IMG/VR virus record: IMGVR_UViG_3300044961_000667
Reading direction: 5' to 3' (one strand)
Origin: a virus
Taxonomy: Duplodnaviria > Caudoviricetes
DNA length: 64,000 nucleotides
Shown here: positions 3,556-13,751 of the stretch, in pieces
Layout of the letters: each line of letters starts with the position of its first letter
Numbering within the stretch: the first letter of the stretch is position 1
Program-made: the position numbers and the translations under genes
Notes under the pieces: generated by a model
Told to the model about the DNA's origin: nothing
Seen by the model: only the letters and a program-made list of their open reading frames with translations
Databases searched by the model: none

Positions 3556-3753
3556 TCAGAAGCAACACGAGTCCCGATAGTGACACTTCGGGCAAATGTA
3601 GTGCGCGTGTTCGGGCTTCATCGTCGTCGAGCACTGGGGGCACGACGTCGACAAGTCGCAGCTCGCCGGCTTTTCTTCCGTCAGCACTCGCGCGTTCGAC
3701 GGCTGGCGCGAGCGCTGCGGAAGCTCCTCTGTGATCAGTCCCGGCTTTTGCAC
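3556..3753 (-). CDS. Small CPxC zinc-ribbon protein
   Basis: CPQCSTTMKPEHAHYICPKCHYRDSCCF; start uncertain. Confidence 0.6.
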   Translation of the reverse strand: MQKPGLITEELPQRSRQPSNARVLTEEKPASCDLSTSCPQCSTTMKPEHAHYICPKCHYRDSCCF

Positions 3754-3762
3754 CGGGCCAAT

Positions 3763-4080
3763 CTACGCGGCCTGGTTTTCAGATTCAAGAGCGTACTCCT
3801 TCAGAGCCAGCTCGACGGCCTCAGCCTGCTGCTCCGAGGTGTGCTGCTTGAAGTGCACCTTTCGCCGGCTGTGGGCGATGAGCTGGTACAGCCGACTGGC
3901 GTGCTGCTTCTCGGCTTTCAGCCGGGCGATCGTGCCAGGCGTGAACTTCTTGAACGTCGGGTCCCAGCTGCCGCTCTCCAGTCGCGGCTGATGCGACTCG
4001 CGGAGAATGCCCTTCAGCATCTTGATCTCCGCCTCGATGTCCTTCCGGTCCTGGTGCAGCTTCTTCAGGTTCAGCTTCAT
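3763..4080 (-). CDS. Hypothetical protein
   Basis: 105-aa ORF with AAGGAG RBS, tightly packed. Confidence 0.65.
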   Translation of the reverse strand: MKLNLKKLHQDRKDIEAEIKMLKGILRESHQPRLESGSWDPTFKKFTPGTIARLKAEKQHASRLYQLIAHSRRKVHFKQHTSEQQAEAVELALKEYALESENQAA

Positions 4081-4093
4081 GGCCTTCTCTCCT

Positions 4094-4420
4094 TCAACGA
4101 AGCAAGGAGAGCCGCCCGAGCGCCCTCCTCACGGTGGGGGTTCGGACGGTGGGCACGATGCCCAACGCCATGAGCGCGCCGTTGAAGGGCGCGTCGGGCT
4201 CTCTGATGGCTGTGTGCGGGATGCCGAGACGCTGAAGCTCGGCTTCGAGCCGAAGCAGCTCCTCCTCGTCGGAGACGGCAAGAGCAACAGCTCTGGTACT
4301 CGGGGGGACTTGCTCGCGGACGGACTCGCCGGCCGCGTGAATCGTCTGGGCAACCTGCACCCCTGGGGGCAGGTCTCGCCTCAAGACGACGTAGTGGTAC
4401 AGCGGCTCTTCGTTACAGCA
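4094..4420 (-). CDS. Peptidyl-tRNA hydrolase PTH2-like protein (no canonical start before the conserved N-terminal motif)
   Basis: PLYHYVVLRRDLPPGVQVAQTIHAAGE…ALAVSDEEEL…IREPD…LMALGIVP…LGRLSLLR. Confidence 0.75.
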   Translation of the reverse strand, partial: CCNEEPLYHYVVLRRDLPPGVQVAQTIHAAGESVREQVPPSTRAVALAVSDEEELLRLEAELQRLGIPHTAIREPDAPFNGALMALGIVPTVRTPTVRRALGRLSLLR

Positions 4421-4451: not shown

Positions 4452-4979
4452 TCAGCGCCCACGACGGGACTCGAACCCGCTTCGACGACGATGGGTTCTT
4501 TCAGCATGGCAGTTGGCACAAACAACCTCGCACTTCGCCAACTCCATTCTCACATCTTCCTCTGAACGGGCGTGGTTGACCATCCTCGACACGTCGTCTT
4601 GCTTCGTTCCCCTGACGTGATCAAACTGCATCACCCACGGCCCATACTGATGGCCACAGTCCGTACACGGCGTCGTGCTCTTGATCTCGTTGGCGATCTT
4701 GCGAAGCGTTTCACGCTTGATCGACTTGTACGCCCTGTTCTTGTCGACGTACTTCTGGTGATTGGAGCGGTAGTGCTTTCGCGAACCCTTCTGCATGCAC
4801 ACCCGACATCGCGAATGCCGCAGCGTCGGCTTCCTCTTCCAGTTGAAGTCGTCCTCTGACTTGAACCGTTCGCATCCGGAGCACCACTTCTGAACGCCCC
4901 CGGCGGGAATCGAACCCGCAACCCGTTCGCCTGTAGTCGGCGACAGCTCTGCCAGTTGAGCTACGGAAGCATCTTCCAC
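4452..4979 (-). CDS. HNH endonuclease whose reading frame runs through a tRNA-like sequence
   Basis: CSGC/CRVC, PCTDCG…FDHVRG…KCEVVCANCHAERT; the only plausible start (GTG 4979 after GGAG) precedes the tRNA at 4895-4970. Confidence 0.8.
   Translation of the reverse strand: MEDASVAQLAELSPTTGERVAGSIPAGGVQKWCSGCERFKSEDDFNWKRKPTLRHSRCRVCMQKGSRKHYRSNHQKYVDKNRAYKSIKRETLRKIANEIKSTTPCTDCGHQYGPWVMQFDHVRGTKQDDVSRMVNHARSEEDVRMELAKCEVVCANCHAERTHRRRSGFESRRGR
4456..4480 (-). pseudogene. 3' half (T arm + acceptor strand) of a split tRNA
   Basis: GCGGG TTCGAGT CCCGT CGTGGGC G; pairs 6/7 with acceptor strand at 5026-5032. Confidence 0.65.
4895..4970 (-). tRNA. tRNA-like gene with central CTA in a non-canonical anticodon loop
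   Basis: GCTTCCG/CGGGGGC acceptor, GCTC/GAGC D stem, TCGCC-GACTACA-GGCGA, GCGGG-TTCGATT-CCCGC; lacks U33 and purine 37. Confidence 0.6.
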
Positions 4980-4986
4980 ATCATCT

Positions 4987-5032
4987 CCGTCCACCTGTAG
5001 TCGGCGGTTGCTCGCCTATGAGCTACGAGGGC
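4987..5032 (-). pseudogene. 5' half of the split tRNA (same GACTACA loop)
   Basis: GCCCTCG TA GCTC ATAGGC GAGC AA CCGCC GACTACA GGTGG, no T arm follows. Confidence 0.65.
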
Positions 5033-5074
5033 CTGTTCCAACCTGAGGAGATCGTAACTCCTGCAGGAGTTTCG

Positions 5075-5305
5075 TCAAGTGACTGACTGCGCCGGCTCCT
5101 TGCAGTCGATGCAGTAGCCGCACGAGCCGCACCGGTACTTCACCCAAACGCCCTGCACCTTCGACACCCCCGCCGAGCGTCCGTCCTCCTGGCGCGTGAT
5201 GCCAGGCTTCTTGCACTGCGGGCAGATGCCTTGCTTCAGCTTCTCGTCGATCTGCTGACTCCATTCCTGGATGGCAGCGACAACGTCCTGAGGCGGCTCT
5301 TTCAC
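5075..5305 (-). CDS. Small zinc-finger protein
   Basis: CPQC…CGSCGYCIDC; AGGAG RBS. Confidence 0.6.
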   Translation of the reverse strand: MKEPPQDVVAAIQEWSQQIDEKLKQGICPQCKKPGITRQEDGRSAGVSKVQGVWVKYRCGSCGYCIDCKEPAQSVT

Positions 5306-5320
5306 TTCTCCTCCGTACCA

Positions 5321-5700
5321 TGGAGCTGCGGGGAATCGAACCCCGGTCCGAAAGCCTTCAGTCCTTCGACTCTACGTGCGTAGCCGCTGTCACCGCGGCC
5401 GAGTCCTGCTGCCCGCTGGTCTTTCCCCGCATTCGCCGAGCGGACTGGGCGGGGGCAACTCCTGGGTGGGTTTCGCCTCGCCAGCTACGCAGGAGCGCCT
5501 CGCTGGTTCGACGGAGAGCTAAGACTTTCGGTCCGCTCTCAAGCCCTGATCAGGGCAACCGCTCACGCGGCTGCGAGCATCGGGGCCGCCTCGACGTTGT
5601 CGTTGGCGGTTGTGGTTTCTCACTGGGATTTACGAGCACAGCGAGCTGCTCGGCACGCATCTCAGGTCGTCTTTGCCCCCGTCGAATCCAGTTCAGCCCC
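5321..5700 (-). ncRNA. ssrA: tmRNA, tag peptide ANDNVEAAPMLAAA
   Basis: 5' GGGGCTGAACTGGATTCGAC, 3' GGACCGGGGTTCGATTCCCCGCAGCTCCA; tag frame 5563-5607. Confidence 0.93.
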
Positions 5701-6080
5701 GTTCACTGCTTCCTTCAAGCAACGGCGATAGGCGCCCGTGCCGAACATCCGGTCGGTGCGCCCAACGCAGGGAGTTGTGGTCCCCCGCATCGCCGTCCTC
5801 ATCATCTCGCGCGTCGGTGTCGCCTGCACTTTTCGCACTGGCCCGTGCTGTCGAACACGCACAGCTCCTGATTCACACCGCATCCCACGTACTGCGCGAC
5901 CGAGTCGACGCGGAGCTGGGCTTCGTGGCCGCTCTCACGCGAGTCCGCTGCTCTCTGCGACTGCTCGTTCTGCGTCATGGGGGTGCGCCTTCTGTTCTTG
6001 GTCGAACTGACTGTCAAGATCATCAATGACACCAGTGGACAGTGTTCGTCAAGGGGAACCGGACAGCAGCGACAGTTTCT

Positions 6081-6146
6081 CGACCCGTCCAGGAGTCGAA
6101 CCCAGCACCACGCCCTTAGAAGGGGCCGGCGGATCCATCACGGGCC
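6081..6146 (-). tRNA. tRNA-Arg(TCT), truncated D arm
   Basis: GGCCCGT/ACGGGTC acceptor, CTTCTAA loop, T arm; only 66 nt. Confidence 0.55.
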
Positions 6147-6159
6147 TCAACAACAACAG

Positions 6160-6244
6160 CGGAGCGCCCGAGAGTCGAACTCGGCTGACCCGTGAAGGTC
6201 GTCGCGTTAGCAGTGCGATGCCGTCCCACGCTGGCTCACGCTCC
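6160..6244 (-). tRNA. tRNA-Ser(GCT)
   Basis: Cloverleaf, CTGCTAA loop, long variable arm. Confidence 0.85.
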
Positions 6245-6247
6245 ATG

Positions 6248-6335
6248 CGGAAAAGGCGAGAGTCGAACTCGCAGACCGCCCGAAGACGATCGTCCGCTTT
6301 CCAAGCGGGTGGGCTCACCAGTGCCCAGCTTCTCC
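6248..6335 (-). tRNA. tRNA-Ser(GGA)
   Basis: TTGGAAA loop, long variable arm. Confidence 0.85.
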
Positions 6336-6338
6336 ATG

Positions 6339-6427
6339 CGGAGCGGGTCCGAGTCGAACGGACAGCCCGCCTTTCGACGAGCAAGCGCTTTCGAGACGCT
6401 CTGACTTGCCTGTGTGCAAACCGCTCC
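6339..6427 (-). tRNA. tRNA-Ser(CGA)
   Basis: CTCGAAA loop, long variable arm. Confidence 0.85.
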
Positions 6428-6523
6428 AGAAACACCCTCAGATGACCGCCTGAGGGGCGCGGGGGCCTGTTGGCCGAGATGCCCCTAGCTGTCGCCAGTT
6501 CGTGAGCGTCTCGGGACGGCTTG

Positions 6524-6610
6524 CGGAAGACGGAGGACTCGAACCCCACACCCACTCGGGGTGCCGACCGCTTTCAAGGCGGGCCAGCGTCCATCACTGG
6601 TTCATCTTCC
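6524..6610 (-). tRNA. tRNA-Ser(TGA)
   Basis: CTTGAAA loop, long variable arm. Confidence 0.85.
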
Positions 6611-6611
6611 A

Positions 6612-6941
6612 TCACTGCGATCGCGGCTGATCGGCGTTCCAGACGGAGCGGCCCATCGCTCCCTCATCGGCCTCAGCGTTCTTCAACATCGAGTAGTAGT
6701 CCGGTCGCTCCTTCAGGTGCGCCCAGGCGATCTTCCCGATGTCGAGCAGGTCGTCAACCACGTCGGTCTCCGGGTCGACGTCATGCTCCGACTCAACCCC
6801 GAGACCGGCCGCGAACTCTCCGAGGTCGACCTGGCTCCAGTCGATCCCCAGCTGGTCGCCAACCCACTTCGCCAGCTCAGGGCTCCATGCCGGCGCCTCG
6901 CCGACCTCTTCCTTCAGCTGCCTGACGAGCTTCCTGAGCAT
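6612..6941 (-). CDS. DUF5661-like protein
   Basis: GLGVESEH…DD…KIAWAHLKERPDYYSML motif. Confidence 0.7.
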   Translation of the reverse strand: MLRKLVRQLKEEVGEAPAWSPELAKWVGDQLGIDWSQVDLGEFAAGLGVESEHDVDPETDVVDDLLDIGKIAWAHLKERPDYYSMLKNAEADEGAMGRSVWNADQPRSQ

Positions 6942-6981
6942 GCGGTGGCCTCCGGGCGCACAGTACACCCAGAGGCCACCC

Positions 6982-7524
6982 TCAGTCTTCCAGCTCGGTG
7001 TTCCAGTACGCCACCGAGGCGAGCCACTGCTTCCACGGCTCGGGCATGCCCTTCTTCCAGGTGAAGGTGAGCCGCACCGACTCGGGCAACGACTTCGGCT
7101 TCACCGGCACCTGCAGGAGCTTCATGCCTGCCTGCGCTGGCGTCCGACCGCCCTTCTTCTGGTTGCAGGGCGTGCACGACACCACGATGTTCTCCCACGT
7201 CGTGTGGCCGCCCTGCGTGCGCGGGACGACGTGGTCGTACGTGAAGTCGTGCCTGGGCACCTTCGCCGAGCAGTACTGGCACTTGCCCTTGTCTCGCGTG
7301 AAGACGTTCTCGCGACTGAACTTGATCGCCTTCTTCTTGCCGCGGATCGCCCGGAGGAACCGGATCACCGACGGCACCTTGAACTCCAACGTCATCGAGC
7401 GGACGGTCTTGTCCTCGTACTCCTCGACGACTTCCACCTTCTCCTCCCAGAGGAGGGTGATCGCCCGTTGCCAGCTCACGCGGGCAACCGGGGTGTAGCC
7501 AACATCGAGCACCAGCGTTTCCAC
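6982..7524 (-). CDS. HNH endonuclease (McrA-like bacterial family)
   Basis: LVLDVGYTP…SWQRAITLL…PSVIR…FSRENVFTRDKGKCQYC…TYDHVVPRTQGG…WENIVVSCTPCNQKKG. Confidence 0.9.
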   Translation of the reverse strand: METLVLDVGYTPVARVSWQRAITLLWEEKVEVVEEYEDKTVRSMTLEFKVPSVIRFLRAIRGKKKAIKFSRENVFTRDKGKCQYCSAKVPRHDFTYDHVVPRTQGGHTTWENIVVSCTPCNQKKGGRTPAQAGMKLLQVPVKPKSLPESVRLTFTWKKGMPEPWKQWLASVAYWNTELED

Positions 7525-7562
7525 GTTGCCCGTCCTTTCTGCGGCCTTCGCCGCGGTGAGTG

Positions 7563-7647
7563 TAGTCCCGGCCGGACTCGAACCGGCACGGCCTTTGTGG
7601 CCACTGGGGTTTGAGCCCAGCGCGTCTACCGACTCCGCCACGGGACC
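7563..7647 (-). tRNA. tRNA-Leu(CAA)
   Basis: CTGGG-CTCAAAC-CCCAG, long variable arm. Confidence 0.88.
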
Positions 7648-7652
7648 ATCTG

Positions 7653-7741
7653 TGCTCGGGGCGAGACTCGAACTCGCATGAGGCTTTCGCCCCACCGGCT
7701 TCTGAGGCCGGCGTGTCTACCGAAGGTTCCACCACCCGAGC
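7653..7741 (-). tRNA. tRNA-Leu(CAG)
   Basis: CCGGC-CTCAGAA-GCCGG. Confidence 0.88.
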
Positions 7742-7752
7742 ATGCACTTCAG

Positions 7753-7839
7753 TGGTCCGGGCGAGAGTCGAACTCGCATGATCTTTCGATCGGCAGGCTC
7801 TCAACCTGCTGTGTCTACCGGAGGTTCCACCACCGGACC
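7753..7839 (-). tRNA. tRNA-Leu(GAG)
   Basis: GCAGG-TTGAGAG-CCTGC. Confidence 0.88.
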
Positions 7840-7843
7840 AAAG

Positions 7844-7916
7844 TACCCGCTCTCGGAATCGAACCGAGCCCTCCGCCTTGTGAAAACGGCGCTCTCACCA
7901 GTTGAGCTACGCGGGC
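7844..7916 (-). tRNA. tRNA-Val(CAC)
   Basis: CCGTT-TTCACAA-GGCGG. Confidence 0.82.
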
Positions 7917-7920
7917 ATGT

Positions 7921-7990
7921 CGTGAGCCTGGGAGTCGAACCCAGCTGGGCGGATTATGAGACCGCTGCCTTCCCTCGATGGCTTGCTCAC
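7921..7990 (-). tRNA. tRNA(CAT), Met or Ile2
   Basis: GCGGT-CTCATAA-TCCGC. Confidence 0.75.
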
Positions 7991-7994
7991 GGAG

Positions 7995-8067
7995 TAGCAG
8001 GGGCTGGGATCGAACCAGCGTTCTCCAGGTTATGAGCCTGGCGAGATGACCTCTTCTCCACCCTGCA
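7995..8067 (-). tRNA. tRNA-Met(CAT), initiator-like (1:72 mismatch)
   Basis: TGCAGGG/CCCTGCT, CCAGG-CTCATAA-CCTGG. Confidence 0.8.
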
Positions 8068-8068
8068 G

Positions 8069-8142
8069 TACTCCCGGAGGGACTCGAACCCCCAGCCTCT
8101 TCGTTCGTAGCGAAGCGATCTGATCCGTTGATCTACGGGAGC
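8069..8142 (-). tRNA. tRNA-Arg(ACG)
   Basis: CTTCG-CTACGAA-CGAAG. Confidence 0.88.
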
Positions 8143-8154
8143 ATCAAACAACAG

Positions 8155-8228
8155 CGGTCTCGGCGGGACTCGAACCCGCGGCCTTTCGCTTCGGAGGCGA
8201 ACGCTCTCATCCACTGAGCTACGAGACC
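8155..8228 (-). tRNA. tRNA-Arg(CCG)
   Basis: TTCGC-CTCCGAA-GCGAA. Confidence 0.9.
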
Positions 8229-8230
8229 AG

Positions 8231-8303
8231 CGTTCCCGGAGGGACTCGAACCCCCGACTTCTCCGTTAGGACCGGAGCACTCTTCCAACTGAGCTACGGG
8301 AAC
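8231..8303 (-). tRNA. tRNA-Arg(CCT)
   Basis: CTCCG-GTCCTAA-CGGAG. Confidence 0.85.
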
Positions 8304-8309
8304 ATCCTG

Positions 8310-8380
<71 letters not shown>

Positions 8381-8779
8381 TCAACCAACCACGTACTTCT
8401 CAGCCAACTTCACACCGGACTTCTGACCGTTCTTGGCAGGCTCGACCCGAAGCTGCCCGCCAACGGCCCCAACCTCCTCGACCGGGACCAGATACACCGC
8501 ATCCAACTCTGGGCAGTGGACGCCGAAGAACTCGACCTCACCGCGGTACGACTTTCTCCCAGTCCCTCGGTGAGCCGAGTTGCTGCTGGTGTCGAAGACA
8601 ACCGCTCCATTCTTGAGCCGCCCAGTCTTGCACTGCACTCGCTGGAACCCGGCATCAGTGTCGATCACCAGGTCGTAGCGCTGGTTCTCTCCAATCGGGA
8701 GCAGCACCGTCCTCCCGGTCTTGAGCAACGCCGCCATCACCGCACCCTCTGTTCTCGTCCCCTGCGCCTTGGTGTTCAT
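8381..8779 (-). CDS. PD-(D/E)XK endonuclease (I-Ssp6803I / PDDEXK_5-like)
   Basis: G..TE…PIGENQRYDLVID…FQRVQCKTGR…YRGEVEFFGVHCPELDAVYLVP. Confidence 0.85.
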   Translation of the reverse strand: MNTKAQGTRTEGAVMAALLKTGRTVLLPIGENQRYDLVIDTDAGFQRVQCKTGRLKNGAVVFDTSSNSAHRGTGRKSYRGEVEFFGVHCPELDAVYLVPVEEVGAVGGQLRVEPAKNGQKSGVKLAEKYVVG

Positions 8780-8799
8780 GCTCCACATCTACCACACCG

Positions 8800-8841
8800 C
8801 TCGGACACCAGCCGAGTGCTCTGCCTTCGAGCTGCGGGGGC
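8800..8841 (-). pseudogene. 5' remnant of tRNA-Thr(GGT)
   Basis: GCCCCCG CA GCTC GAAGGCA GAGC A CTCGG CTGGTGT CCGAG, no T arm. Confidence 0.7.
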
Positions 8842-8845
8842 GCTG

Positions 8846-8918
8846 TGGATCTGGCCGGACTCGAACCGGCAACCTTCTGCGTGCAAAGCAGCCGCTCTCC
8901 CATTGGAGCTACAGACCC
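8846..8918 (-). tRNA. tRNA-Ala(TGC)
   Basis: TTTGCAC loop, G3-U70. Confidence 0.88.
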
Positions 8919-8923
8919 TTCAG

Positions 8924-8996
8924 TGGAACCGGCGGGACTTGAACCCGCCACCTCTCGCATGCGAAGCGAGCGCTCTCCCAGATGAGCTACGGCCCC
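8924..8996 (-). tRNA. tRNA-Ala(CGC)
   Basis: CTCGC-TTCGCAT-GCGAG. Confidence 0.88.
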
Positions 8997-9001
8997 AGGT
9001 G

Positions 9002-9072
9002 TGCGCGAGCAGGGAGTCGAACCCTGTCGTCTCCCGCGTCGGGGGAGTGCTCTACCGGTGAGCTACACGCGC
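9002..9072 (-). tRNA. tRNA-Val(GAC) with C33
   Basis: CTCCC-CCGACGC-GGGAG. Confidence 0.75.
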
Positions 9073-9161
9073 ATGGGCAGGCGGTGCTTTCGCCGAGCTG
9101 CCAGCAGTCACCACGTTCGTGACCCCGGCCCTGCTCGGTAGACTGCCACCTCTCCTGCTTG

Positions 9162-9234
9162 TGGACCCGGCGGGGATCGAACCCGCTACCTCTCGCATGC
9201 CATGCGAGCGCTCTCCCAAGTGAGCTACAGGCCC
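9162..9234 (-). tRNA. tRNA-Ala(GGC)
   Basis: CTCGC-ATGGCAT-GCGAG. Confidence 0.88.
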
Positions 9235-9326
9235 TAAGCGAGGCAGTTCGTAACGCTGCCTGCCCGGCTTTCCACCGGCGCGGGTTGATCAGACCCACGA
9301 GACTTGCCCGGAGCGACCGGGCCATG

Positions 9327-9399
9327 TGCCGTCCCTCGGAATCGAACCGAGATCCTCCGCTCTTCAGGCGGGTGCATGGACCACCACTGCCAAGACGGC
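9327..9399 (-). tRNA. tRNA-Phe(GAA)
   Basis: CCCGC-CTGAAGA-GCGGA. Confidence 0.82.
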
Positions 9400-9408
9400 G
9401 TACTTCAG

Positions 9409-9480
9409 CGGACCCGAACGGAATCGAACCGTCCTCGCCGGCGTGACAGGCCGGTCGCCTCACCAGATGCGTACGGATCC
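9409..9480 (-). tRNA. tRNA-Asp(GTC)
   Basis: CCGGC-CTGTCAC-GCCGG. Confidence 0.85.
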
Positions 9481-9485
9481 AACAG

Positions 9486-9568
9486 GGCGACTGGAGAGAA
9501 TCGAACTCTCACTGAGCTTTCGCTCGCGGGGTCACAACCCGCTGGGAACCCATTTCCCATCAGCCGCC
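9486..9568 (-). tRNA. tRNA-His(GTG) with long variable arm
   Basis: G-1:C73, GCGGG-TTGTGAC-CCCGC, GAGC-GAAA-GCTC variable hairpin. Confidence 0.8.
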
Positions 9569-9576
9569 AGAAGAAA

Positions 9577-9696
9577 TCTGCTCCACCCGAGTGAGGAAGG
9601 CATGAAACGGGTTTGAACCGTCTGGTCGATTTAGCAGATCGACTGATCACCAAGATCAGTAGTGCGTGTGAGCCATCCTCGGCCGGGTGGTGCAGA
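9577..9696 (-). ncRNA. tRNA-mimic-like structured RNA with extended closing stem
   Basis: D-like, anticodon-like and T-like hairpins closed by about 21 bp of interrupted terminal helix. Confidence 0.5.
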
Positions 9697-9697
9697 G

Positions 9698-9769
9698 TCC
9701 GCCGCAGTGGAATCGAACCACTTGCCTCTCGCTTATCAGGCGAGTGCTCTTCCAGTGAGCTACCGGCGG
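9698..9769 (-). tRNA. tRNA-Ile(GAT)
   Basis: CTCGC-CTGATAA-GCGAG. Confidence 0.82.
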
Positions 9770-9778
9770 GCACGTCAG

Positions 9779-9852
9779 TCAGGGTGGCTGGGATCGAACC
9801 AGCGACCTCCTGCATCCGAAGCAGGCGCGCTACCAGGCTGCGCTACACCCTG
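9779..9852 (-). tRNA. tRNA-Pro(CGG)
   Basis: CCTGC-TTCGGAT-GCAGG. Confidence 0.9.
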
Positions 9853-9862
9853 TTGAGTCAAG

Positions 9863-9899
9863 TCAGGTCGGCTGGGATCGAACCAGCGATCTCCTGCAT
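9863..9899 (-). pseudogene. 3' half of split tRNA-Pro
   Basis: AT GCAGG AGATC GCTGG TTCGATC CCAGC CGACCTG A. Confidence 0.8.
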
Positions 9900-10327
9900 C
9901 ACCAGACGTGGTCACTGGCCAGCAGGATGTTCTTCTTGGCCCCATTCGCGGGGGCCTCCAATCTCACATGCAGGATCGACTTCCCCTGGAACTCCTCAGG
10001 CAGGAAGGCCGTCACCACGTCCATCTCAGGCAGATACACCAGAAGCAGGTCAACCTCCCCGACCTCATACTTCTTGAACGACTTGTTGCTCGGTCCCACC
10101 CACGTCCTCAGAGCCACAGTCGCCACGCCGGACGAATGAGACGACTTGCCGCCTCCATACTTCGCTTGGGCCCGGATCAACCTAACACCATCATCCAGAA
10201 CCAGATCGTACCTGGCATCGGTTGTGGGCCGACTGACGACAAACCCCTTCTCAATCGCCCTCTGCTGCGCCTTCAGCGATGCCACTTCACCCTTCTGCCT
10301 GGTGTCCACTTCTCTTGCGTACCACAC
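9899..10327 (-). CDS. PD-(D/E)XK endonuclease (PDDEXK_5-like)
   Basis: KGEVA…VSRPTTDARYDLVLDDG…RAQAK…YEVGEVDLLLVY; paralogous to 8381-8779. Confidence 0.82.
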   Translation of the reverse strand: MWYAREVDTRQKGEVASLKAQQRAIEKGFVVSRPTTDARYDLVLDDGVRLIRAQAKYGGGKSSHSSGVATVALRTWVGPSNKSFKKYEVGEVDLLLVYLPEMDVVTAFLPEEFQGKSILHVRLEAPANGAKKNILLASDHVW

Positions 10328-10340
10328 AGGAGAACATCTG

Positions 10341-10412
10341 TCGAAGAGACTGGACTCGAACCAGCATCCTCACGGCCCCCAGCCGTGCGCTCCACCATTG
10401 AGCTACTCCTCG
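10341..10412 (-). tRNA. tRNA-Pro(GGG)
   Basis: CGAGGAG/CTCTTCG, CACGG-CTGGGGG-CCGTG. Confidence 0.82.
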
Positions 10413-10417
10413 TCACG

Positions 10418-10452
10418 CCCGAGCAGGCGCGGTACCACTCCGCTACGACCTG
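10418..10452 (-). pseudogene. 5' half of split tRNA-Pro
   Basis: CAGGTCG TA GCGG AGTGGTA CCGC G CCTGC TCGGG; pairs perfectly with 9863-9899. Confidence 0.8.
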
Positions 10453-10456
10453 AAAG

Positions 10457-10528
10457 TCTGGAAGGCGGGGATCGAACCCGCGACCTCTCGCGTCCAAGGC
10501 GAGCGCCCTACCGCTGGACTACTTCCAG
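10457..10528 (-). tRNA. tRNA-Pro(TGG)
   Basis: CTCGC-CTTGGAC-GCGAG. Confidence 0.85.
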
Positions 10529-10532
10529 TTGT

Positions 10533-10544
10533 GCAATCGATTGC
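10533..10544. promoter_or_regulatory. GCAATCGATTGC palindrome copy 3
   Basis: Exact 12-mer, 4 nt upstream of tRNA-Pro(TGG). Confidence 0.7.
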
Positions 10545-10552
10545 GTTCAAAA

Positions 10553-10712
10553 CTGTGCAGTGCGGACTGGCGGTTTGCACCCGCTGCACCGCATTGTCGG
10601 CCTGGCCTCAATAGGCCGCACGGTCCCACGCCGTCGAACGCCAGGACCTGCACCAACCACCGCCATGTTCGACCTGCCAAGCGGTGCCCGTTCATGCCGG
10701 GATGCTGCACAG
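10553..10712 (-). ncRNA. Candidate 160-nt structured RNA
   Basis: CTGTGCAG…CTGCACAG terminal helix followed by TTTT; several internal hairpins. Confidence 0.45.
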
Positions 10713-10784
10713 TACCCCGTACGAGAATCGAACTCGTTTCGCTCGCTTGAAGGGCGAGGGGCCTAACCAATGGCCGAACGGGGC
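10713..10784 (-). tRNA. tRNA-Glu(TTC) with C33
   Basis: CTCGC-CCTTCAA-GCGAG. Confidence 0.8.
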
Positions 10785-11119
10785 TTCTCTGCTCGATCAT
10801 GCGTCCTCTGCCGATGACAGTTGGCGCAGACCACTTCACATTTCTCGATCTCGGCTACGACCTTCTCAGGTCCGACACCGTGCCTCTTGAACTGCCCCAG
10901 GCTGAACTCCTTCCGACCCCTGACGTGATCAAAGTCCATCACCCATGGCGGATAGGCGACACCGCAGTCCGCGCACGGCCTGGACTTGGCTTTGTCGATG
11001 ATCGCCTTGATCGTCTCTTTGTAGGCCGCTGCCGCTCTGATGTACGAGATCTTGTTCTTCTCGTAGTGCCTGCGGCTGTACTCGGCCTGCTTCGACTTCG
11101 ACGGCTCTCTGAGCGGCAT
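10763..11119 (-). CDS. HNH endonuclease (paralog of 4452-4979)
   Basis: PCADCG…WVMDFDHVRG…KCEVVCANCHRQRT; stop lies inside tRNA-Glu. Confidence 0.85.
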   Translation of the reverse strand: MPLREPSKSKQAEYSRRHYEKNKISYIRAAAAYKETIKAIIDKAKSRPCADCGVAYPPWVMDFDHVRGRKEFSLGQFKRHGVGPEKVVAEIEKCEVVCANCHRQRTHDRAEKPRSAIG

Positions 11120-11129
11120 TCTTCGTCAT

Positions 11130-11198
11130 ACCACTTGACGAACCTTTCGTCACTCCACCTTGAAAGGGTGTCGGCCTCACCTGAAGCACCAACGGGGC
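11130..11198 (-). pseudogene. 5' remnant of tRNA-Glu(TTC)
   Basis: GCCCCGT…ACACC CTTTCAA GGTGG then a decayed T arm and no 3' acceptor strand. Confidence 0.7.
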
Positions 11199-11203
11199 TG
11201 AAG

Positions 11204-11274
11204 TACCGCGTACGGGTGTCGAACCCGTCTCACTGGGCTGAGAACCCAGGGACCTCCCGGAAGTCGAACGCGGC
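11204..11274 (-). tRNA. tRNA-Glu(CTC)
   Basis: CTGGG-TTCTCAG-CCCAG. Confidence 0.82.
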
Positions 11275-11280
11275 TTGAAG

Positions 11281-11353
11281 AGGCGGAGGCGGGAGTCGAA
11301 CCCGCTCGATGTCGGTTTTGCAGACCGATGCCTTCCCAGTTGGCTACTCCGCC
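11281..11353 (-). tRNA. tRNA-Cys(GCA)
   Basis: TCGGT-CTGCAAA-ACCGA, U73. Confidence 0.88.
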
Positions 11354-11375
11354 AGGGAAAGACGAGACTGTGCAC

Positions 11376-11732
11376 ATGAAGCGCGTGCTGTGCCTTGATG
11401 ACGACGACATGGTGGCCCGGCTCATCGCCGAGGTGGTCGAGTTCTGCGGACACGAGCCCGTTCGAGAGAGCGACCCGCTGAAGGCTTCCTCGGACCACCT
11501 CCACGACCGGAAGATCGCTGCGGTGCTCACCGACTACATGATGCCTCGCCTCGATGGCGTCGACGTTCTGGTGGTCTGGCAGGAGTCTCGACCCGAGGTG
11601 CGCCGAGTGCTGATCACCGCGGCCCCGAACGAGCCGGCGGTGAAAGAGGCCCTCCGCACCGGCGTCGCTCAGATGGTGATCGCTAAGCCTCCGACGATCG
11701 CCGACATCAAGATGGCCCTGGCCTGGCTCTGA
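11376..11732 (+). CDS. Single-domain response regulator (CheY-like receiver)
   Basis: RVLCLDDD…VLTDYMMPRLDG…VLITAA…IAKP: acidic pair, phospho-Asp, Thr, Lys all present. Confidence 0.9.
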   Translation: MKRVLCLDDDDMVARLIAEVVEFCGHEPVRESDPLKASSDHLHDRKIAAVLTDYMMPRLDGVDVLVVWQESRPEVRRVLITAAPNEPAVKEALRTGVAQMVIAKPPTIADIKMALAWL

Positions 11733-11733
11733 G

Positions 11734-12297
11734 CTACCGCTTCTTCCTCGCCAGTCGCTCCTCCAGCTGCTGAACCGACATCTGGATGGAGTCGTTGATC
11801 GACCGCATCATGTCCTGCCGGAGCTTGTACTCCAGCTCCTGCAGCTTCTTGTCGGAGGCGTCCTTCGACTCCTTCTCGCGCTGGCGGTAGTACTCACCCT
11901 GTTTCTCGATGCGCTGGTCCACCGCCTGCCGGATCTCCGAGACCGTTCCCTTCATGGCCTCGATGGCCGACAGCACCTGCTTCATCTCGGTCTGAACGTT
12001 GCCGACCGACTTGTCGATACCGGCCAGGGCGTCGCTCTGCTCGTCGAACTTGTCGTCGTGCTCGTCGAGCCGCTCTTCGGTCTTCTGCTTGTCCTTGTCC
12101 TCGCGGTCGACCGTCCGCGAGCCCAGCCACTTGACGAAGCCAACGACGGCTCCGATCAACTGGGTGACGACTGCTGCTCCGACCAGCAAGTACAGCCCGG
12201 TCAGCCCGTCACCTGCTGGCGCTGGCGGTGGGGTTGCTGCTGCGGCTCCTGCCGCCGCCGCCGCCGCCGGGCCCGCCGCCAAGATCAACAGGTTCAA
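11734..12297 (-). CDS. Membrane protein with coiled-coil tail (holin-like?)
   Basis: One hydrophobic helix LYLLVGAAVVTQLIGAVVGFVKWL followed by a long charged coiled coil. Confidence 0.6.
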   Translation of the reverse strand: MNLLILAAGPAAAAAAGAAAATPPPAPAGDGLTGLYLLVGAAVVTQLIGAVVGFVKWLGSRTVDREDKDKQKTEERLDEHDDKFDEQSDALAGIDKSVGNVQTEMKQVLSAIEAMKGTVSEIRQAVDQRIEKQGEYYRQREKESKDASDKKLQELEYKLRQDMMRSINDSIQMSVQQLEERLARKKR

Positions 12298-12300
12298 GAA

Positions 12301-12657
12301 CTACTCCTTGCTCGACAGATCGTCGTCGTCGTCGGGCTCTTCAGAGGGCACCGCCGACACCGGAGTCGCTGGCGGGAGGTTCACCTGCAGCTTGGCCGCA
12401 ATGGCGTCCACCACCTTCGACGTGTGCCGGCTTTCCATCTGCATCGACATCATCAGCTTCTCGCCTCGGAGCGTGCGCTCGTCGACATGCTTCACGGCGG
12501 TCTTCAGTGCCGCCAGGTCCTCGCCGAAGCCGGCCATTTTGGACCTCATCTCGTGCATGTCCTCTTCGAGCTTTGCCACTCGCGAGGCCAGGCTGATGGC
12601 CGTCGGCTTCCGCTTTCTTGGGGCCGTACGGAGGCCCCTCCCTCTGGTGTCACGCAA
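12301..12657 (-). CDS. Coiled-coil hypothetical protein
   Basis: Heptad pattern, basic N-terminus, acidic C-terminus. Confidence 0.6.
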   Translation of the reverse strand: MRDTRGRGLRTAPRKRKPTAISLASRVAKLEEDMHEMRSKMAGFGEDLAALKTAVKHVDERTLRGEKLMMSMQMESRHTSKVVDAIAAKLQVNLPPATPVSAVPSEEPDDDDDLSSKE

Positions 12658-12766
12658 AGTCGCTCTCCGAAGAAGCGGTCCACGGTCGTGGTTCTCTCAC
12701 GGCCTGCTGTTGGTTGACTGCTCCATCTTTCGCCCTCTTCTGGGCATCCGTCAACTGTCACTGATG

Positions 12767-12841
12767 CGTACCCTCTCGGAATCGAACCGAGCACCGTCGG
12801 CTTAACAGGCCGCTGCTATCAACCAGACCAGCTCAGGGCAC
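12767..12841 (-). tRNA. tRNA-Asn(GTT)
   Basis: CTGTTAA loop. Confidence 0.75.
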
Positions 12842-12847
12842 ATCGTA

Positions 12848-12918
12848 CTGGGGAGGAAGGGATCGAACCTTCTCCGTCGGCTTCAGAGACCGCTGCGCTA
12901 CCCTTGCGCCACTCCCCA
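12848..12918 (-). tRNA. tRNA-Gln(CTG)
   Basis: CTCTGAA loop, TGGGGAG acceptor. Confidence 0.85.
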
Positions 12919-12930
12919 ATGTCTTTCGCT

Positions 12931-12997
12931 CAGGGGCCCTGGGAATCGAACCCAGCTCGTCGGCTTCAAAGGCCGACTCACTCCCTGAGTACCCCTC
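12931..12997 (-). tRNA. tRNA-Gln(TTG), irregular
   Basis: TCGGC-CTTTGAA-GCCGA; short D region. Confidence 0.6.
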
Positions 12998-13001
12998 CAT
13001 G

Positions 13002-13073
13002 AGCGGGTGGCGAGGATCGAACTCGCGCATCCTGGGTTGGAAGCCCAGAGCCTTTCCGCTTGGCTACACCCGC
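13002..13073 (-). tRNA. tRNA-Gly(TCC)
   Basis: CTGGG-CTTCCAA-CCCAG. Confidence 0.88.
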
Positions 13074-13076
13074 ATG

Positions 13077-13147
13077 TACCGCCGCTGGGGATCGAACCCA
13101 GTCCCTCCGCTTAAAAGGCGGTTGCTCTACCCTTGAGCTACGACGGC
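13077..13147 (-). tRNA. tRNA-Lys(TTT)
   Basis: CTTTTAA loop. Confidence 0.85.
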
Positions 13148-13204
13148 GCGTGGACCTGCGCCGTCGCGTTTCATCTTCGTCTTCATCGTCGTCTCCTTGT
13201 CGAG

Positions 13205-13292
13205 TGGTGGGAAGGCTCGGAGTCGAGCCGAGCTGGGACGCAATGCCACCCGCTTTACAGGCGGGCCACGAGCCCTACGTGTCTACCTTCCC
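13205..13292 (-). tRNA. tRNA-Tyr(GTA), encoded CCA
   Basis: CCCGC-CTGTAAA-GCGGG, long variable arm. Confidence 0.82.
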
Positions 13293-13295
13293 ATG

Positions 13296-13366
13296 AGCGG
13301 CATCCGGGAATCGAACCCGGTTCAGTGGCCTGGCAGACCACGGCCCAACCAATAGACCAATGCCGC
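13296..13366 (-). tRNA. tRNA-Gly(GCC)
   Basis: GTGGT-CTGCCAG-GCCAC. Confidence 0.85.
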
Positions 13367-13448
13367 ATACGGCTTTGTCGCTGACGGCCGCGCAGATCCT
13401 CGTGCGGAATGCACGAAGGACTGAACGTCTGCCGGCGACAGAAGCCAG

Positions 13449-13519
13449 TGGGCCCTGAGGGGATCGAACCCTCTCCTGACGCTTAAGAGGCGCCTGCTCT
13501 ACCCTTGAGCTAAGGACCC
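13449..13519 (-). tRNA. tRNA-Lys(CTT)
   Basis: GGCGC-CTCTTAA-GCGTC. Confidence 0.87.
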
Positions 13520-13569
13520 AGATTCGGCCAGCCCGACTAGACGTCAGACAGGTGGCCGAACTGTCGCTG

Positions 13570-13590
13570 CTATCCAGTTTTCAGAGAACA
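13570..13590 (-). promoter_or_regulatory. boxA-like antitermination site
   Basis: TGTTCTCTGAAAACTGGATAG resembles the rRNA-operon boxA TGTTCTTTGAAAACT. Confidence 0.55.
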
Positions 13591-13599
13591 GAACTGCGA

Positions 13600-13673
13600 A
13601 GCACCAGGTCGGGCTCGAACCGACGACCTGCGGTTTACGAAACCGCTGCTGCTACCTGCTGAGCTACTGGTGC
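13600..13673 (-). tRNA. tRNA-Thr(CGT)
   Basis: GCGGT-TTCGTAA-ACCGC. Confidence 0.87.
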
Positions 13674-13677
13674 ACTG

Positions 13678-13751
13678 CACGGCGAGCAGGAGTCGAACCT
13701 GCAGCGTCGGGTTTTGGAGGCCCGTTCCCTTCCCGTTGGGGACTTCGCCGT
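13678..13751 (-). tRNA. tRNA-Trp(CCA)
   Basis: CTCCAAA loop, G73. Confidence 0.8.

Follow-up and report, generated by a model that had tools for sequence, protein, structure and literature searches.

Does the spacer between two tRNA genes of an uncultured phage specify a small structured RNA, or does it fold by chance in GC-rich DNA? We examined a 64 kb window (the whole stretch of DNA analysed) from a phage of ~62% GC, in which nearly all genes lie on the minus strand and in which sheath and tape-measure domains, together with tail-fibre families, indicate a contractile tail. ARAGORN and Rfam define a tRNA array at 4894-13751 comprising 39 tRNA genes and one tmRNA, every one on the minus strand, and this array is interrupted by an HNH endonuclease gene (10763-11119) and also holds a PD-(D/E)XK endonuclease gene (9899-10327). 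A gap of 183 nt between the genes for tRNA-Glu(UUC) and tRNA-Pro(UGG) houses a 160-nt element (10553-10712) that is 67% GC and lies on the same strand as the 39 tRNAs (Table 1).

The spacer and its flanking genes

The upstream neighbor of the element, tRNA-Glu(UUC), does not encode its CCA, and its 3′ end is placed at 10713 by Rfam and at 10712 by ARAGORN, so that the 5′ arm of the element begins 0-1 nt later. The HNH cassette upstream of the element split an old copy of tRNA-Glu(UUC), and the 5′ remnant of that copy (GCCCCGUUGGUG...CUUUCAAGGUGG, ~11195-11150, minus strand) is still present upstream of the HNH gene within the region 11120-11198. The HNH stop codon now lies 22 nt inside the intact tRNA-Glu(UUC). 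Because the cassette split the old tRNA-Glu, we infer that the spacer on the downstream side of the tRNA formed part of the original locus rather than of the cassette.

On the other side of the element, the minus strand reads UUUU, GAAC and then the palindrome GCAATCGATTGC (10544-10533), with tRNA-Pro(UGG) beginning 4 nt further on. The window contains eight exact copies of this palindrome (1803, 2153, 10533, 15441, 36721, 45021, 51152 and 61409), and allowing up to two mismatches yields nine matches against 2.6 expected, a count that none of 100 shuffles reached. Each of the seven other copies comes just after a stop codon, and 3-25 nt separate it from the next minus-strand start codon or its ribosome-binding site; copies are usually followed by AC or GC. 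The palindrome probably serves the phage as a promoter, operator or leader signal, and the position before tRNA-Pro of the 10533 copy, the only one within the tRNA array, suggests that a unit border lies right after the element.

Two further observations concern tRNA genes of the array. The spacer at 7752-7839 (minus strand) has a predicted cloverleaf fold: its acceptor stem is GGUCCGG/CCGGACC (7 bp), its T-arm GCGAG-UUCGACU-CUCGC and its anticodon loop UUGAGAG, and there is an extra arm. ARAGORN and Rfam both passed over what is probably, judging from this fold, a tRNA-Leu(GAG)-like gene. In tRNA-Pro(UGG), three sequencing runs carry C in place of U at tRNA position 11 (window position 10518), a structure-preserving change that converts the D-stem wobble pair U11-G24 to C-G in a bona fide tRNA.

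Table 1. Positions in the window of the predicted helices of the element and of the features that flank it.
Feature	Position	Strand	Description and basis
tRNA-Glu(UUC)	10713-10784	-	Directly upstream of the element; discriminator A at 10713; ARAGORN; Rfam tRNA, 52.8 bits
P1 5′ arm	10705-10712	-	CUGUGCAG (DNA CTGTGCAG); sequence reading and fold, pair probability 0.99
P2	10687-10701	-	Hairpin CCCG/CGGG with 7-nt loop GCAUGAA; fold, mean pair probability 0.98
P3	10658-10686	-	CACCGCU/GGCGGUG, 7 bp including one G-U, loop of ~15 nt; fold, probability 0.97
P4	10596-10657	-	Branched arm; fold, probabilities 0.95-0.98
P5	10561-10593	-	UGCGG/CCGCA, 4x4 internal loop, GCGG/CCGC, 7-nt loop GUGCAAA; fold, probabilities 0.95-0.96
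P1 3′ arm	10553-10560	-	CUGCACAG (DNA CTGCACAG); sequence reading and fold
U4 run	10549-10552	-	Directly 3′ of P1; polymorphic, UUCU in one run; sequence reading
Palindrome GCAATCGATTGC	10533-10544	-	4 nt upstream of tRNA-Pro(UGG)
tRNA-Pro(UGG)	10456-10528	-	Directly downstream of the element; ARAGORN; Rfam, 66.3 bits

Predicted fold and its statistical weight

The ViennaRNA minimum free energy (MFE) fold of the minus strand is a five-way junction in which helix P1 closes around four arms, P2-P5, and all main helices have pair probabilities of at least 0.95. P1 consists of 8 bp of perfect complementarity between CTGTGCAG (10712-10705) and CTGCACAG (10560-10553); its 5′ arm directly follows the discriminator A of tRNA-Glu, and adding both flanking tRNAs to the folded sequence leaves its probability at ~1.0. 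Arm P4 has a base of GUUGGU/GCCGAC with two G-U pairs and carries GCA/UGC plus GGUCCU/GGGACC, with a loop that includes CGUUCGACG, and also bears a hairpin GGCCU-AUUG-AGGCC. The plus strand folds poorly, with an ensemble diversity of 43 and an MFE of -67 compared to -77 for the minus strand, an asymmetry consistent with the four G-U pairs of P3 and P4.

An earlier note on this DNA had proposed a multibranch domain shut by an 8-bp terminal helix that stands beside tRNA-Glu and is followed by TTTT and the palindrome. Sequence reading and folding bear out this arrangement, folding predicts the closed multibranch domain, and the internal helices given as CACCGC/GCGGTG, GGTCC/GGACC and GCGG-GTGCAAA-CCGC all recur in the minimum-energy fold with pair probabilities of at least 0.95. 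Two of the proposed details fit less well. A claimed CGGCC/GGCCG helix competes with both the predicted GGCCU/AGGCC hairpin and the GUUGGU/GCCGAC helix, and two motifs described as T-loop-like stand outside any T-arm-like context, with the tRNA model silent in the element at E<=10 and a relaxed ARAGORN call ridden with mismatches.

We compared the fold with several kinds of control. The MFE z-score of the element is -1.3 to -1.4, and this measure decides nothing because the tmRNA (-1.3) and a good tRNA-Pro (-1.0) of the same window score no better in a GC-rich genome. The element has an ensemble diversity of 10.3; shuffles give 38.5 ± 15.4 and none of 150 falls as low, and 1.3% of 451 genomic 160-nt windows are equally well defined. 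These figures are favored by the choice of the element ends at the helix. With natural tRNA-to-tRNA boundaries, the spacer falls at the unremarkable 25th-30th percentile, and when control windows are allowed their best closed domain 5-6% of them match the element. A perfect 8-bp helix spanning at least 100 nt occurs in 8.7% of shuffled spacers, and an 8-bp helix starting no more than 3 nt from the tRNA end occurs in 0.8%. Taken together, these statistics are suggestive but borderline.

The element is not alone in closing on itself. Other minus-strand spacers of the array likewise self-close over nearly the whole spacer, including 13367-13447 (z = -5.5), 13520-13599 (z = -3.5) and 9073-9160 (z = -2.7). 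Self-closing spacers thus seem to be a habit of the array, judging from these predicted folds, and the 160-nt element may be the largest of them. The array spacer at 9577-9696, ~900 nt from the element, has a fold z of -5.2.

Coding potential, family searches and relatives

The element is non-coding. Real genes here have a GC3 of 0.75-0.92 and a GC2 of 0.39-0.52, and the element has a GC3 of 0.54-0.70 in every frame with no codon-position GC pattern. An ATG ORF of 39 aa (10666-10547, minus strand) that starts in the P3 loop has a GC3 of 0.57 and a GC2 of 0.68, the reverse of real genes. None of the six ORFs overlapping the element occurs in a collection of 15 billion proteins, where the adjacent HNH protein is present on six contigs. 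Homology searches with the open plus-strand frame returned nothing, Pfam gave no match over the element, and six-frame comparison of the element with the window and with relatives detected no protein-level similarity. The absence of a convincing ORF, noted earlier from the letters, is upheld by the codon-position, protein-collection and Pfam results; a conserved peptide, the outcome that the earlier note had set against its own proposal, was looked for with a negative result, and so the RNA reading stays alive.

Searches for known RNA families and repeats were likewise negative. Rfam 15 (4,227 models) assigned no family to the element, either at the gathering score or with the cutoff relaxed to E<=10 over 451 nt, and the only matches touching it are at chance level (Prion_pknot, E 2.6; malK-III, E 6.5), in agreement with the earlier failure to recognize a riboswitch. 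We rejected a tRNA, a tRNA remnant and an intron-bearing tRNA, as RF00005 has no match in the element and ARAGORN with introns and lowered thresholds made a call only at 70% of threshold, a spurious one with mismatches in every stem. A Y RNA or YrlA (RF02553) was also rejected, with no match on the element at E<=10; the sole weak YrlA match (E 0.15) falls on the tRNA-Pro region at 10429-10485, outside the element. A scan for intrinsic terminators, defined as a short GC-rich hairpin plus at least five T in eight, found no site on the element or its flanks, where there are just four U and these are polymorphic; its one match is on the plus strand at 10997-11015, inside the HNH gene. A miniature inverted-repeat mobile element was rejected as well: the 8-bp inverted ends are present, but there is no target-site duplication, and the flanks are TA and TT. 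Neither blastn nor a single-sequence covariance model detected a second copy of the element in the 64 kb window. Among 50,697 phage records (INPHARED), blastn with 10440-10800 matched only tRNA-Pro genes, and tblastn gave distant sheath matches only, the response regulator being without a match.

The stretch is present, in part or in full, in 20 public runs spanning 14 studies, and the data sets with the phage are from hot-spring, mat, bioreactor, wastewater and soil habitats, the habitat names of low-share runs being left out. We compared four runs from four studies, and all carry the element in near-identical phages (~99% identity). Within the element we saw one substitution, 10685 T>C (runs X11 and X16); it replaces A-U with G-U in P3 and so leaves the position paired, as about half of random transitions in a helix would. 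In the U4 run, 10550 A>G in X10 changes UUUU to UUCU. Across the four studies the surroundings are likewise nearly unchanged, and stretches of X16 without cover are evidence of nothing. Contigs from RNA libraries cover the region; such contigs carry no transcript ends or levels. A 518-bp cassette of the PD-(D/E)XK gene and tRNA-Pro(GGG) is absent in three runs of three studies, where the joint is 9899>10418. An apparent joint 10490>11148 in X11 was rejected as a deletion, as it has just 25 letters on one side, and was taken as tRNA cross-matching.

Searches for more distant relatives used the neighboring genes. The adjacent response regulator (11376-11732) has 54 homologs of 46-100% identity, among them P0002-P0012 at 67-76%, a range suited to covariation analysis, and led to L081, an IMG/VR record of 179 kb that is syntenic, shares the tRNA order, has a regulator 66% identical and is the only diverged syntenic relative reached. 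Between tRNA-Glu(UUC) and the original tRNA-Pro(UGG), L081 has a gap of ~150 nt of unrelated sequence and no defined fold (z = +0.4). A covariance model of the element found no match in L081 or in three other related virus records. The palindrome GCAATCGATTGC does not occur in L081 either, and because it too is missing there, L081 is too distant to be decisive. Further IMG/VR records with the response regulator (L082-L084) have no tRNA array. Metagenome contigs searched with a response-regulator alignment were swamped by ordinary bacterial regulators, the only related contig (L001) being without tRNAs, and genome contigs queried with the response regulator gave only bacterial regulators of ~30% identity. 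Searches of IMG/VR with exact patterns (the element core, the palindrome plus flank, and the tRNA-Glu 3′ end) or with neighboring proteins returned no relatives.

L081 carries an HNH cassette of its own, with the same logic as that of the window and in a different tRNA. Within 3752-4172 of this record, an HNH endonuclease ORF (122 aa) begins in the T-arm region of an old tRNA-Pro(UGG), which the cassette split; the 5′ part of this old gene is at ~4172-4121, and an intact tRNA-Pro(UGG) lies at 3687-3761.

A candidate spacer RNA and its alternatives

Our tentative reading is of a lineage-specific, self-closing spacer RNA that is transcribed along with the tRNAs and then either broken down or kept as a small RNA in the manner of T4 RNAC and RNAD. 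As a small RNA it is a candidate: its position, strand, predicted fold and non-coding nature are established, and its transcription, processing and stability are what we infer. In the proposed pathway, the minus-strand spacer of a polycistronic tRNA precursor would fold back on itself, and 3′ processing of tRNA-Glu would create the 5′ end of the element at the foot of P1, the cut probably being made by RNase Z after the discriminator because no CCA is encoded. Weak termination at or just after U4 could supply the 3′ end, or RNase P could cut at tRNA-Pro and the 3′ tail then be trimmed as far as P1. Either route would leave a closed, exonuclease-resistant RNA of ~160 nt. Its likeliest role would be local, allowing neighboring tRNAs to fold independently and marking off the palindrome-associated unit that begins with tRNA-Pro, and a conserved trans-acting function is less likely. 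In favor of this reading we count the strand and position, flush with the tRNA-Glu 3′ end and U4, the well-defined ensemble, the strand asymmetry, the rarity of a flush 8-bp helix in shuffles, the lack of a coding signal, the pair-keeping substitution, the other self-closing spacers and the T4 precedent; against it we count the modest z-score, the ordinary natural-boundary statistics, the 5-6% of boundary-optimized control windows that match it, the missing Rfam match, the negative terminator scan, the unrelated L081 spacer and the polymorphic U4. The features read from the sequence are real, and the predicted fold is plausible and specific to the minus strand; the element is a candidate of low to moderate interest and low priority unless closer relatives covary.

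Several of the same observations can be read differently. The spacer could be non-functional filler, a drifting sequence such as a decayed gene or cassette, with a fold that arose by chance in 67% GC DNA and a flush helix that is coincidental; we regard this as possible, if doubtful. An MFE z of -1.4, an ordinary spacer at natural boundaries, equally defined closed domains in 5-6% of control windows, a long-range 8-bp helix in 8.7% of shuffles and the absence of the element from syntenic L081 and across four related records are all as expected of filler, and the many endonuclease cassettes of the array leave debris behind. Filler agrees less well with the lack of any detectable tRNA or protein-gene remnant, with the p of ~0.008 for a flush P1 and with a strand asymmetry that favors the transcribed strand; the element is also nearly unchanged in four studies, though its surroundings are too. 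It is unlikely, in our assessment, that the element is instead a border between transcription units, at which P1, P5 and U4 would stop or attenuate transcription arriving from the upstream tRNAs and the palindrome, as a promoter or operator, would restart it at tRNA-Pro(UGG), the structure mattering solely as a terminator or 3′-end protector. The terminator scan found no site on the element or flanks, a helix around 144 nt with only four U makes a poor intrinsic terminator, one strain has UUCU, and no comparable structure precedes the other palindrome copies. What speaks for a border is the arrangement itself, with U4 directly after P1, the palindrome 4 nt before tRNA-Pro as the sole copy inside the tRNA array, and seven other copies just upstream of same-strand gene starts.

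Readings in which the element acts away from its locus, or is not an RNA, have less to recommend them. We consider it improbable that the element is a phage small RNA acting in trans on a target of its own, such as a host tRNA-recognizing enzyme for which it would be a decoy. Its fold is closed and well defined, and phage tRNA islands host other non-coding RNAs, including Y-RNA-like RNAs, ROOL and GOLLD (PMC12286853), but the element is not conserved in the diverged L081 and matches no tRNA or Y RNA model. The P5 loop GUGCAAA does share six of seven bases with the anticodon loop CUGCAAA of the phage tRNA-Cys, and we estimate that roughly one in ten such elements would match one of the 39 anticodon loops this well. 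A more specific proposal, in which the element would be an anticodon stem-loop mimic processed from the tRNA precursor and would serve as a decoy or sponge for a host tRNA-targeting defense nuclease or modification enzyme, strikes us as highly improbable. Hardly credible, finally, is a small protein encoded by the 39-codon ATG ORF that starts in the P3 loop, or a miniature mobile element with the 8-bp P1 arms as terminal inverted repeats: the ORF has a GC3 of 0.57 and a GC2 of 0.68, the reverse of real genes, is not in the protein collection and has no Pfam match, and for a mobile element we found neither a target-site duplication nor a further copy, whether in the 64 kb window or in related records.

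The element can be set beside several classes of structured RNA. Like the lysine (five-way) and FMN (six-way) riboswitches, it measures ~160 nt and has a P1 helix closing a junction with four arms; unlike them, it has no Rfam riboswitch match at E<=10 and is followed by a tRNA gene instead of an ORF or an expression platform. YrlA (RF02553), found in bacteria and mycobacteriophages, is likewise a closed small RNA with 5′ and 3′ ends paired in a long stem and a branched head, whereas the P1 of the element is just 8 bp and the element has no identified bulged Ro-binding motif, no tRNA-like module and no match to the model. ROOL measures ~600 nt. ROOL and GOLLD are phage and prophage non-coding RNAs of unknown function beside tRNA islands, and GOLLD members are often longer than 800 nt (PMC12286853). 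Both differ from the element in being far larger, widely conserved and represented in Rfam, and neither has a match on the element.

The closest parallel in setting is bacteriophage T4, with which the window phage shares T4-like tail genes, including the sheath. RNAC and RNAD are conserved in T4-like phages, whereas the element, known here from its sequence and predicted fold, has no detectable homolog and no blastn homology to any of the 50,697 phage records, which are expected to include T4-like phages. RNAC and RNAD are small non-coding RNAs of unknown function that are encoded among tRNA genes, on the same strand, and arise from tRNA-region transcripts (PMC3014915), and RNAC has been seen by northern blot (PMC9697503). 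The element is similarly non-coding and lies inside a phage tRNA cluster on the tRNA strand. It resembles the small RNAs of phage tRNA regions in kind, and by the sequence and model comparisons made here it is a member of none of them. If real, it would be a small, structurally distinct addition to the RNAs of phage tRNA islands, with ends set by tRNA processing.
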